Part shown: positions 77 through 2,511 of the stretch, piece after piece
Position numbering within the stretch: the stretch's first letter is position 1
Layout of the letters: each line of letters starts with the position of its first letter
Sequence record: PQ631072.1
Source: Escherichia phage EC.P2
Reading direction: 5' to 3' (one strand)
Length of the DNA: 64,000 nucleotides
The notes under the pieces: model-generated
What the model saw: only the letters and a program-made list of their open reading frames with translations
Told to the model about the DNA's origin: nothing
The model's database searches: none
Program-made: the position numbers and the translations under genes

Positions 77-158
77 CGGGGTGTATCTCACCTGACTTCT
101 AATCAGGCGTTAACCGAGTAATTGGAGTATGCAGGTTCGAATCCTGTCACCCCGACCA
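77..158 (+). tRNA. tRNA-like element (atypical; D-arm not resolvable by hand)
   Basis: 7-bp acceptor stem 77-83/148-154, T-arm with TTCGAAT loop 131-147, A discriminator, encoded CCA 156-158; possible anticodon stem-loop 91-107 (loop CTTCTAA). Confidence 0.4.
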
Positions 159-176
159 AAAAGTTTTAAAAACTAC

Positions 177-206
177 TTGACAAGCAAGATAGTTTTATGT
201 TAGATT
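177..206 (+). promoter_or_regulatory. sigma70-type promoter (TTGACA-18 nt-TAGATT)
   Basis: TTGACA 177-182, TAGATT 201-206, directly upstream of tRNA at 222. Confidence 0.5.
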
Positions 207-885: not shown

Positions 886-970
886 GATGGATTGGCCTAG
901 TGGTTGGGCGACGGACTGTTAATCCGTGAACGAAAGTTCTAGCAAGGTTCAAATCCTTGATCCATCGCCA
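886..970 (+). tRNA. tRNA with Asn anticodon GUU on a long-variable-arm (class II-like) scaffold
   Basis: Acceptor 886-892/960-966, anticodon stem 911-915/923-927 with loop CTGTTAA, 15-nt variable arm forming GAAC/GTTC hairpin, T-loop TTCAAAT, CCA 968-970. Confidence 0.6.
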
Positions 971-2291: not shown

Positions 2292-2370
2292 CGCGGGATA
2301 GAGGAGTCTGGTCGTCCTCGCCAGTTTCATATGCTGGAGATCGTAGGTTCAAATCCTACTCCCGCCTCCA
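2292..2370 (+). tRNA. tRNA with anticodon CAU (Met-type; unpaired 1:72)
   Basis: Acceptor 2292-2298/2360-2366 with C-C mismatch at top, anticodon stem 2321-2325/2333-2337 with loop TTCATAT, T-loop TTCAAAT, CCA 2368-2370. Confidence 0.6.
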
Positions 2371-2428: not shown

Positions 2429-2511
2429 AGCCGGGTAGATTTAAAAGAGTATGGTACTCAATATGGCTCCAAACCATAGATCAAGGGGTTCGATTCCTCA
2501 CCTTGCTGCCA
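2429..2511 (+). tRNA. probable tRNA-Trp (anticodon CCA); 5' half irregular
   Basis: Anticodon stem 2462-2466/2474-2478 with loop CTCCAAA, T-loop TTCGATT, acceptor 3' strand 2501-2507 plus CCA 2509-2511; best 5' acceptor partner 2429-2435 has one mismatch and implies an insertion before the D-arm. Confidence 0.45.

Follow-up and report, generated by a model that had tools for sequence, protein, structure and literature searches.

The tRNA-Asn of Escherichia coli (asnT/U/V/W) is a class I tRNA of 76 nt with a 5-nt variable loop (AUGUC), a U1-A72 pair and a D stem of 4 bp. Bacterial tRNA-Tyr(GUA), as encoded by tyrT, has a class II body, in which a variable stem of 3-4 bp is followed by three unpaired nucleotides. 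Long variable arms together with anticodons other than those of Leu, Ser or Tyr have been described for the nev-tRNAs of nematodes (PMC3333845), for the bacterial allo-tRNAs (PMC5389517) and for anticodon-shifted tRNA-Ser, all of which keep Leu or Ser (or Ala) identity elements and thus either bring in the 'wrong' amino acid or serve as suppressors. Phage T5 carries its own copies of nuclease-cut host tRNAs as counter-defense, with tRNA-Lys, tRNA-Thr and tRNA-Asn that neutralize PARIS (PMC12409363, PMC11464382). Here we analyze a tRNA-Asn(GUU) gene whose 85 nt include a long variable arm and the terminal CCA, located at positions 886-970 (+ strand) of a 64,000-nt stretch of Escherichia phage EC.P2 (PQ631072.1), which is referred to as the window.

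The phage gene shares with the host tRNA-Asn the anticodon GUU, the loop CUGUUAA, 16 nt of the anticodon arm and G73, and its product presumably uses the same asparaginyl-tRNA synthetase (AsnRS) and receives the same modifications Q34 and t6A37; it differs from the host tRNA by its 15-nt hairpin arm and its G1-C72 pair, and neither the D arm nor the T stem is that of the host. With tRNA-Tyr, both tyrT and the copy in the window at 792-878, it has in common the class II body and the layout of the variable arm, a GUN anticodon of the queuosine family and G1-C72, but Tyr has A73, A36 and UUCG or AUC loops instead of a GNRA loop, and the similarity is low. tRNA-Ser(GCU) resembles it in the long arm, G73, C11-G24 and an anticodon that differs by one base, and the loop of the tRNA-Ser(GCU) in the window is also GAAA; however, Ser has the combination G1-C72/G2-C71/A3-U70, and its variable stem is longer and leaves 0-2 nucleotides unpaired on the 3' side. 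In contrast to nev-tRNAs and allo-tRNAs, the elements of the phage tRNA-Asn match its anticodon. As in T5, the gene is a phage copy of a nuclease-cut host tRNA, and in the window it stands in one cluster with Lys and Thr, but the T5 tRNA-Asn is a class I tRNA of 78 nt which escapes through a substituted anticodon stem (UAAGUU; U30 and U40 are mismatched), whereas the gene at 886-970 reads as in the host where the nuclease cuts and has an extra arm instead.

A tRNA-Asn(GUU) gene with a long variable arm

ARAGORN calls a tRNA-Asn(gtt) of 85 nt on the + strand at 886-970, and the covariance model RF00005 of Rfam scores 56.5 bits at 886-967, compared to a gathering score of 29. The model places the anticodon arm exactly where ARAGORN does and puts a 12-nt insertion into the variable region. 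The unconstrained minimum free energy (MFE) fold is a cloverleaf with a fourth hairpin GAAC/GUUC, which is closed by a GAAA loop (-29.5 kcal/mol, z -2.57). A sequence-only reading of this stretch had drawn the acceptor stem, the anticodon arm and the T arm by hand and had proposed a GUU anticodon and a 15-nt variable arm with its own hairpin. The hand fold is correct in every detail and both programs agree on the anticodon. The reading would have fallen had the covariance model placed the anticodon arm differently or returned a short variable loop, and RF00005 did neither.

The acceptor stem GAUGGAU/AUCCAUC (886-892/960-966) has seven Watson-Crick pairs, starting with G1-C72, A2-U71 and U3-A70, and is followed by the D arm GCC-UAGUGGUUG-GGC (895-909). 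The anticodon arm ACGGA-CUGUUAA-UCCGU has a stem of 5 bp (911-915/923-927) and a 7-nt loop (916-922) with U33 and the anticodon GUU at 918-920; its stretch CGGACUGUUAAUCCGU (912-927, 16 nt) is identical to E. coli asnT. The variable arm at 928-942 consists of the stem GAAC (928-931) and GUUC (936-939), which covaries in the homologues, the GNRA loop GAAA (932-935) and the unpaired UAG (940-942). The T arm CAAGG-UUCAAAU-CCUUG (943-959) contains the GGUUCRAAUCC motif, and the discriminator G73 at 967 and the encoded CCA at 968-970 complete the gene.

The source phage is a phi92-like E. coli myovirus (Justusliebigvirus, Stephanstirmvirinae). The first 3 kb of the window are 99.1% identical to Escherichia phage W22 and 96-99% identical to phi92 and many relatives, and the 85-nt tRNA-Asn is 100% identical in more than 50 phi92-like phages. 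Because the gene is invariant where the flanking 3 kb reach only 95-99%, and because compensatory changes are found in every helix, it is more than a chance fold: 886-970 is a real tRNA-Asn gene of a phi92-like phage.

For the analysis of the arm, IMG/VR was searched with a pattern of a fixed anticodon arm followed by a long gap before the T arm, which gave at least 120 matches; the matches listed were combined with the GenBank loci into a family set of 111 distinct long-arm tRNA-Asn. In alignment A1, which contains 20 diverse members sharing the register of 886-970, 99.4% of the cells are paired and all five helices show compensatory changes, with two-sided changes in 7/7 acceptor, 4/4 variable-stem, 3/5 T-stem and 2/3 D-stem pairs. 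Slid and shuffled controls of this alignment stay far below the observed pairing and covariation. The variable stem occurs as GAGA/UCUC, GAGU/ACUC, GUUC/GAAC, AUCC/GGAU and other variants. When all 111 variable regions were taken without pre-selection, the mean stem was 3.50 bp compared to 2.72 +/- 0.07 bp in shuffled sequences, stems of at least 4 bp were present in 48% (16% shuffled) and GNRA tetraloops in 59% (1% shuffled), with the GAAA loop alone accounting for 47 of the 111 members. The arm is no accident but the defining feature, maintained by selection, of a large family of tRNA-Asn genes in phages and mobile elements.

The geometry of the arm was compared between isotypes. In the long-arm tRNA-Asn family a variable stem of 3-4 bp has 0-1 unpaired nucleotides on its 5' side and 3-4 on its 3' side. 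The mode of phage tRNA-Tyr is 3 bp with 0-1 and 3 unpaired nucleotides, and E. coli tyrT (C-GUC-AUC-GAC-UUC) has 3 bp with 1 and 3. tRNA-Ser shows stems of 4-7 bp with mostly 1 nucleotide 5' and 0-2 nucleotides 3', and tRNA-Leu stems of about 4 bp with mostly 0 and about 1. With 4 bp, no unpaired 5' nucleotide and three unpaired 3' nucleotides, the arm at 928-942 is of the Tyr type and not of the Ser type.

Phage tRNAs for several amino acids that normally have class I tRNAs also contain short hairpins of 3-4 bp, mostly capped by GAAA, in their variable region. At the IMG/VR loci they were seen in 8/43 tRNA-Cys, 5/49 tRNA-Trp and 8/50 tRNA-Thr(UGU); examples are four loci for Cys, two each for Trp, Lys and Ile and one for Gly, and short GNRA hairpins were seen in phage tRNA-Glu as well. 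tRNA-Ile(UAU)-like genes at nine IMG/VR loci have a variable region of 21-26 nt with a recurring AGAUAA/AGAUU motif. In Salmonella phage PVP-SE1 (locus L002, 1348-1433) an 86-nt tRNA is annotated as Lys, for which ARAGORN gives the four-base anticodon ggca and a long variable region.

The tRNA at 886-970 matches 154 phage records, 52 of them at 99% identity or more. Identity drops stepwise to 92-93% in Klebsiella Stephanstirmvirinae, about 85% in Seunavirus/PVP-SE1 and about 75% in phAPEC8-like phages. Long tRNA-Asn(GUU) of 82-87 nt were found among T5-like Demerecviridae (Lindwurm, Stubb, PSTCR5, SB9 and BASEL phages), in T4-like Straboviridae (CC31, CHI14), in Marfavirus F48 and in Pseudomonas jumbo phages, one of them phiKZ-like; long forms are also known from Vequintavirinae (rV5-like) and Stephanstirmvirinae. 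One T5-like version alone matches 695 phage records. A pattern with any gap length returned, among 120 viral matches taken in database order, 105 short-loop and 15 long-arm genes, the latter at loci already seen, so that about one in eight viral tRNA-Asn genes with the fixed anticodon arm is of the long-arm type.

Bacteria and archaea were scanned with the long-gap pattern as well, using one genome for each of 185,579 species. This returned 33 stretches, of which 17 are intact long-arm tRNA-Asn according to ARAGORN, and 11 of these 17 lie inside dense tRNA arrays with 7-36 tRNAs per 8 kb, e.g., in Micromonospora. Long-arm tRNA-Asn is thus a widespread phage family, present in hundreds of unrelated phages and hardly ever in bacteria. 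In Verrucosispora and Micromonospora chromosomes (four loci) the arrays hold 23-36 tRNAs in 8 kb, among them a tRNA-Asn of 89-90 nt whose variable stem reaches 6 bp (4 bp at locus L044). A native class II tRNA-Asn in Saprospiraceae was considered and rejected, as the matches are fragments or 3' halves of tRNA-Asn with an inserted 16-nt palindrome. At these Saprospiraceae/Bacteroidota loci (L026, 5498-5800, and six others) the fragments stand in tandem or isolated, the palindrome CCCGATAGCTATCGGG sits in their variable loop, and an intact class I tRNA-Asn adjoins.

Amino acid identity and origin

In E. coli, Asn identity depends on the anticodon bases G34, U35 and U36 together with G73, Tyr identity rests on A73 and U35 and Leu identity on A73; Ser identity is given by the long arm, aided by G73 and the acceptor stem, where G1-C72 and G2-C71 are 'absolutely conserved' (PMC9976931). 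G73 is a determinant for Asn and Ser and an anti-determinant for the Tyr and Leu synthetases (TyrRS, LeuRS), and U1-A72 is not reported as needed by E. coli AsnRS (PMC9976931).

The full E. coli Asn set is present in the phage gene, with GTT at 918-920 and G at 967, while the A73 of tRNA-Tyr is absent. Two features depart from bacterial tRNA-Asn: instead of a class I body with a variable loop of 4-5 nt there is the 15-nt hairpin arm, and the first pair is G1-C72 and not U1-A72. The U1-A72 pair is a determinant for the amidotransferase route and is typical of bacterial tRNA-Asn. Among the 111 family members G73 is found in 102 and U1-A72 in 69. In comparison with tRNA-Tyr, G73 replaces A73 and the anticodon GUA has become GUU, with U35 kept and A36 changed to U; G73 likewise argues against a Leu identity, for which A73 is crucial. 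A73 is present in 60/61 phage tRNA-Tyr, in 78/78 phage tRNA-Leu and in E. coli tyrT. From the Ser set the gene has G73 and G1-C72 but lacks G2-C71 and A3-U70. In phage tRNA-Ser at the same loci G1-C72 occurs in 88/95, G2-C71 in 91/95 and A3-U70 in 86/95, whereas all three pairs together are found in 3/111 long-arm tRNA-Asn. The anticodon stem matches asnT and not tyrT, and the core is 40% identical to that of the adjoining tRNA-Tyr, i.e., there is no special similarity. The pattern is also not that of nev-tRNA or allo-tRNA type molecules, in which an identity set for Leu, Ser or Ala is combined with a foreign anticodon, since here the elements are those of Asn. Because they agree with the anticodon, no recoding is predicted.

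The gene is therefore best described by one of the two possibilities left by the sequence-only reading, an unusual tRNA-Asn, in agreement with G34-U35-U36, G73 and the 16 nt of the anticodon arm identical to asnT. The other one, in which a tRNA of the Tyr type has a shifted anticodon and could cause misreading, is not supported: A73 is absent, the anticodon stem is asnT-like and the core identity to tRNA-Tyr is low. What stands of the Tyr-type scaffold is the arm; its geometry agrees with bacterial tRNA-Tyr rather than with Ser or Leu, but the identity elements point to Asn. Taken together, we consider it likely that 886-970 encodes a working phage tRNA-Asn that is charged by the host AsnRS, decodes AAC and AAU and carries a selected Tyr-like arm. 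Judged from the identity elements, AsnRS is most likely the charging enzyme.

A blastn search with the tRNA against all complete E. coli genomes gave no match, which rules out a captured host gene. The nearest tRNA core within each locus belongs to Gln (10), Met (9), Tyr (8), Ile (8), Trp (8), Ser (5) or others. As these nearest isotypes are scattered and no consistent donor appears, it was rejected that a Ser, Tyr or Leu gene of the same phage gave rise to the tRNA-Asn by a recent change of its anticodon. In the window the nearest core is that of tRNA-Ser(GCU) with 62%, a weak signal. The family may have come either from a tRNA-Asn that gained a hairpin or from a class II tRNA that was remodelled; that U1-A72 and C2-G71 predominate among the metagenomic members favors an Asn ancestor.

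tRNA cluster and tRNA-cutting defenses

The tRNA cluster of the window spans 77-2592 on the + strand (ARAGORN, Rfam), and within it tRNA-Lys(UUU) at 711-786, tRNA-Tyr(GUA) at 792-878, tRNA-Asn, a tRNA-like RNA at 977-1055 and tRNA-Thr(UGU) at 1061-1135 lie side by side on the same strand. The Lys and Thr genes were called by ARAGORN and Rfam and the Tyr gene by ARAGORN; the latter has A73 and the variable arm U + GCCC-UUCG-GGGC + UUC. A promoter-like site, TTGACA-18-TAGATT with a TG, at 177-206 (+), identified from its consensus match alone, precedes the tRNA run 222-1135 and could drive transcription of the tRNA-Asn gene. Asn codons, which are over-represented in this AT-rich phage, make up 5.9% of the codons in the long open reading frames (ORFs) of the window (AAU 3.4%, AAC 2.5%), which has a GC content of 38%; in E. 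coli the share is near 4%. According to ARAGORN, 886-970 is the sole tRNA-Asn of the cluster. Because of this and the 5.9% Asn codons, supply for Asn decoding would be a sufficient reason for the gene, without explaining the arm.

The tRNA-like RNA directly 3' of the tRNA-Asn (fold z -3.1) is called by neither ARAGORN nor Rfam. It has an acceptor-like stem of 8 bp, a T-arm-like hairpin with an 8-nt loop UAUCGAAU and an irregular central hairpin where the anticodon arm would be. By sequence comparison and the T5 annotation it resembles T5 'rna3, putative tRNA-like RNA', which comes after the T5 tRNA-Asn (locus L008, 8878-8950, minus strand), and similar RNAs stand behind the long-arm tRNA-Asn of Lindwurm (L004, about 1578-1650) and of phAPEC8 (L003, about 1600). 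Elsewhere in the cluster, 77-155 (+) scores 40 bits as a tRNA in Rfam without an ARAGORN call; in its fold an acceptor stem is present but a D arm is missing, the loop of anticodon type is CUUCUAA (UCU, Arg), and the T arm is preceded by an extra hairpin that is long. At 2292-2370 (+) a second tRNA-Met(CAT) with an enlarged D loop is present, whose homologue in phAPEC8 is annotated 'tRNA-Pseudo-CAT', and at 2448-2508 (+) there is a weak tRNA-like match of 22.9 bits, which is below threshold. Near the tRNA region of T5, gene T5.081 (L008, 16618-17052) is annotated as 'tRNA amidotransferase'.

The nuclease AriB of the PARIS defense system cuts E. coli tRNA-Lys(UUU) as well as tRNA-Thr(UGU) and, less efficiently, tRNA-Asn(GUU) between positions 40 and 41; it needs a UAAU motif and also contacts the D loop, and T5 tRNA-Lys, tRNA-Thr and tRNA-Asn together neutralize PARIS (PMC12409363). 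Thus, as for the T5 genes, the phage gene at 886-970 is an isoacceptor of a host tRNA that is cut by a tRNase. However, the change of the cleavage site seen in T5 is lacking: positions 36-41 read UAAUCC as in the host, compared to UAAGUU in T5. In the window, Lys (UAACUC, E. coli UAAUCA) and Thr (UAAGCA) differ from E. coli at position 39, while Asn keeps the host sequence UAAUC/C (slash at the cut). There appear to be two designs of phage tRNA-Asn at the sequence level, one with a short loop and an altered stem and one with a host-like stem and an extra arm.

Published experiments with BASEL phages touch on long-arm genes. Bas33 (HildyBeyeler) has an intact long-arm tRNA-Asn of 86 nt and a long-arm tRNA-Thr(UGU) of 87 nt with host-like UAAUCA. 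Bas33 escapes PARIS once T5 tRNA-Lys alone is supplied (PMC12409363), therefore its own Asn and Thr genes suffice. Against the OLD tRNase the Bas33 tRNA-Thr(UGU) gives strong counter-defense, whereas the short T5 one gives a partial rescue (preprint 10.64898/2026.07.10.737580). The variable arm is mentioned neither in the PARIS study (PMC12409363) nor in the OLD preprint (10.64898/2026.07.10.737580). The tRNA-Asn of Bas34 (SelmaRatti) 'did not suffice' against PARIS (PMC12409363). In this long-arm gene (L274, 9001-9083) the 3' strand of the acceptor stem is replaced, leaving three mismatches, and ARAGORN does not call it; the broken gene probably explains the insufficiency. The negative result therefore says nothing about intact genes, and it was rejected as evidence against a role of the arm. 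The hairpin of the Bas33 tRNA-Thr(UGU) (L275, 10775-10861, also at two further loci) is A-GGA-GUAA-UCC-CGUU and thus GNRA-capped, and a long-arm tRNA-Thr(UGU) is present in about 100 T5-like phages.

In the proposed mechanism the phage tRNA-Asn would be transcribed within the cluster, carry its own CCA, be charged by the host AsnRS and decode AAC and AAU. The host-identical anticodon arm would still serve AsnRS, Tgt (Q34) and the t6A37 enzymes, and the arm would reshape the tRNA body in such a way that host tRNA-directed nucleases or toxins, e.g., AriB of PARIS, no longer fit.

Weighing the readings of gene and arm

Several points weigh against a working, AsnRS-charged tRNA-Asn with a selected arm. 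The rules from which Asn identity is deduced were set on class I tRNA-Asn. Class II synthetases approach the tRNA from the side of the variable loop, and the extra arm could hinder AsnRS. The long arm, G73, G1-C72 and C11-G24 overlap with part of the Ser identity set. Conservation of the anticodon arm in the metagenomic members is given by construction, as the search pattern fixes this arm, and the rows of A1 were pre-selected for a pairing variable stem. Regarding the arm, the short T4 tRNA-Thr(UGU) also protects well against OLD (preprint 10.64898/2026.07.10.737580), and UAAU is kept in 4/8 long-arm compared to 20/42 short-arm phage tRNA-Thr(UGU), i.e., there is no correlation. An arm in place of an anticodon-stem mutation was therefore dropped as a statistical rule, since these counts from metagenomic genes lend it no statistical support.

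The overlap with Ser is the basis of a dual or Ser identity, in which the long arm and G73 would let the Ser synthetase (SerRS) charge the tRNA, so that AAY codons are partly read as Ser; the gene could then be a derivative of a phage tRNA-Ser(GCU), in which a single mutation turns the anticodon into GUU. SerRS recognizes its tRNAs by the long arm, with a contribution of G73, and not by the anticodon (PMC9976931, PMC7609411), and besides G73, G1-C72 and C11-G24 the closest relative in the cluster is tRNA-Ser(GCU), at 62% core identity and likewise with a GAAA-capped arm. However, A2-U71 and U3-A70 stand where 86-91 of the 95 phage tRNA-Ser have A3-U70 and G2-C71, the geometry differs (4 bp + 3 compared to 5 bp + 1 in the Ser(GCU) of the window and 6 bp + 1 in E. 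coli serU), the Ser signature is rare in a family where U1-A72 prevails, and across loci there is no consistent paralogy to Ser. In work by Himeno in 1990 and Asahara in 1994, for E. coli SerRS it reportedly matters how long the arm is and how it is oriented, and an arm of the native Tyr type is not accepted, which lowers this explanation further without eliminating it; we regard it as unlikely. A derivative of tRNA-Tyr in which GUA changed to GUU, still charged with Tyr and misreading Asn codons, would account for the geometry of the arm, the common G34 and U35 and the adjoining tRNA-Tyr, but with the TyrRS anti-determinant G73 (PMC9976931) in place of the nearly invariant A73, a core identity of 40% and an asnT-like and not tyrT-like anticodon stem it is highly improbable.

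In its anticodon arm the phage tRNA does not differ from the host target, not even at the AriB site from U36 to C41, and it could be a decoy or sponge that binds a host tRNase or toxin and does not decode. The authors of the PARIS study suggest that overexpressed viral tRNAs may be competitive inhibitors (PMC12409363), and directly downstream lies a tRNA-like RNA without an anticodon. On the other hand, G73, the encoded CCA, the 7-bp acceptor stem and the canonical T loop are kept across the family although a decoy does not need them, and this is the sole tRNA-Asn in the cluster of a phage with abundant Asn codons (5.9%); a decoy is quite unlikely, slightly more so than charging by SerRS. Broken versions do exist, i.e., the Bas34 acceptor stem, a tandem duplication of the loop in Azoarcus and the palindrome fragments of Saprospiraceae, and the arm might be a small hairpin of no consequence in a tRNA-Asn pseudogene or a neutral insertion. 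But phage families which share almost no sequence in the acceptor stem retain the arm, with its GNRA cap and with compensatory changes, and the gene at 886-970 is invariant across many phages. Covariation largely refutes this explanation, which has very little probability left.

For a working tRNA-Asn, the leading guess for the role of the arm is the evasion of host tRNA nucleases, which the context suggests and which we put forward only tentatively. Alternatively, the arm may stabilize an under-modified phage tRNA, be a handle for a phage factor or be an anti-determinant against some other host enzyme. In a broader form, which is possible but somewhat doubtful, the GNRA-capped variable hairpin would be a general design of viral tRNAs, commonest in Asn, that acts as shield or handle to evade AriB, OLD and colicin-like enzymes; besides Asn it would include the hairpins seen in phage tRNAs for Thr(UGU), Cys, Trp, Lys, Ile, Glu and Gly.

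As a gene, the long-arm tRNA-Asn is no novelty, since hundreds of GenBank records already annotate it as tRNA-Asn. In reviews on non-canonical tRNAs and tRNA identity and in papers on phage counter-defense we found no description of a long-arm phage tRNA-Asn, the older subscription literature on T5 and T4 not being covered, and the class II-like nature of many phage tRNA-Asn appears to be undescribed. Textbooks and reviews restrict bacterial class II tRNAs to Leu, Ser, Tyr and Sec; the phage tRNA-Asn family breaks this rule, with no sign of recoding. It offers a natural test of how far AsnRS, a class IIb synthetase, tolerates an extra arm, and an orthogonal-looking tRNA scaffold for engineering. 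The intact long-arm genes of Bas33 and the broken one of Bas34 help to interpret the published PARIS experiments. The long-arm tRNA-Asn is a candidate for a new escape of phage tRNAs from tRNA-targeting immune systems, and if the general viral design holds true, it would be a second escape route beside mutations in the anticodon loop and stem, in which normal charging, modification and decoding are kept.

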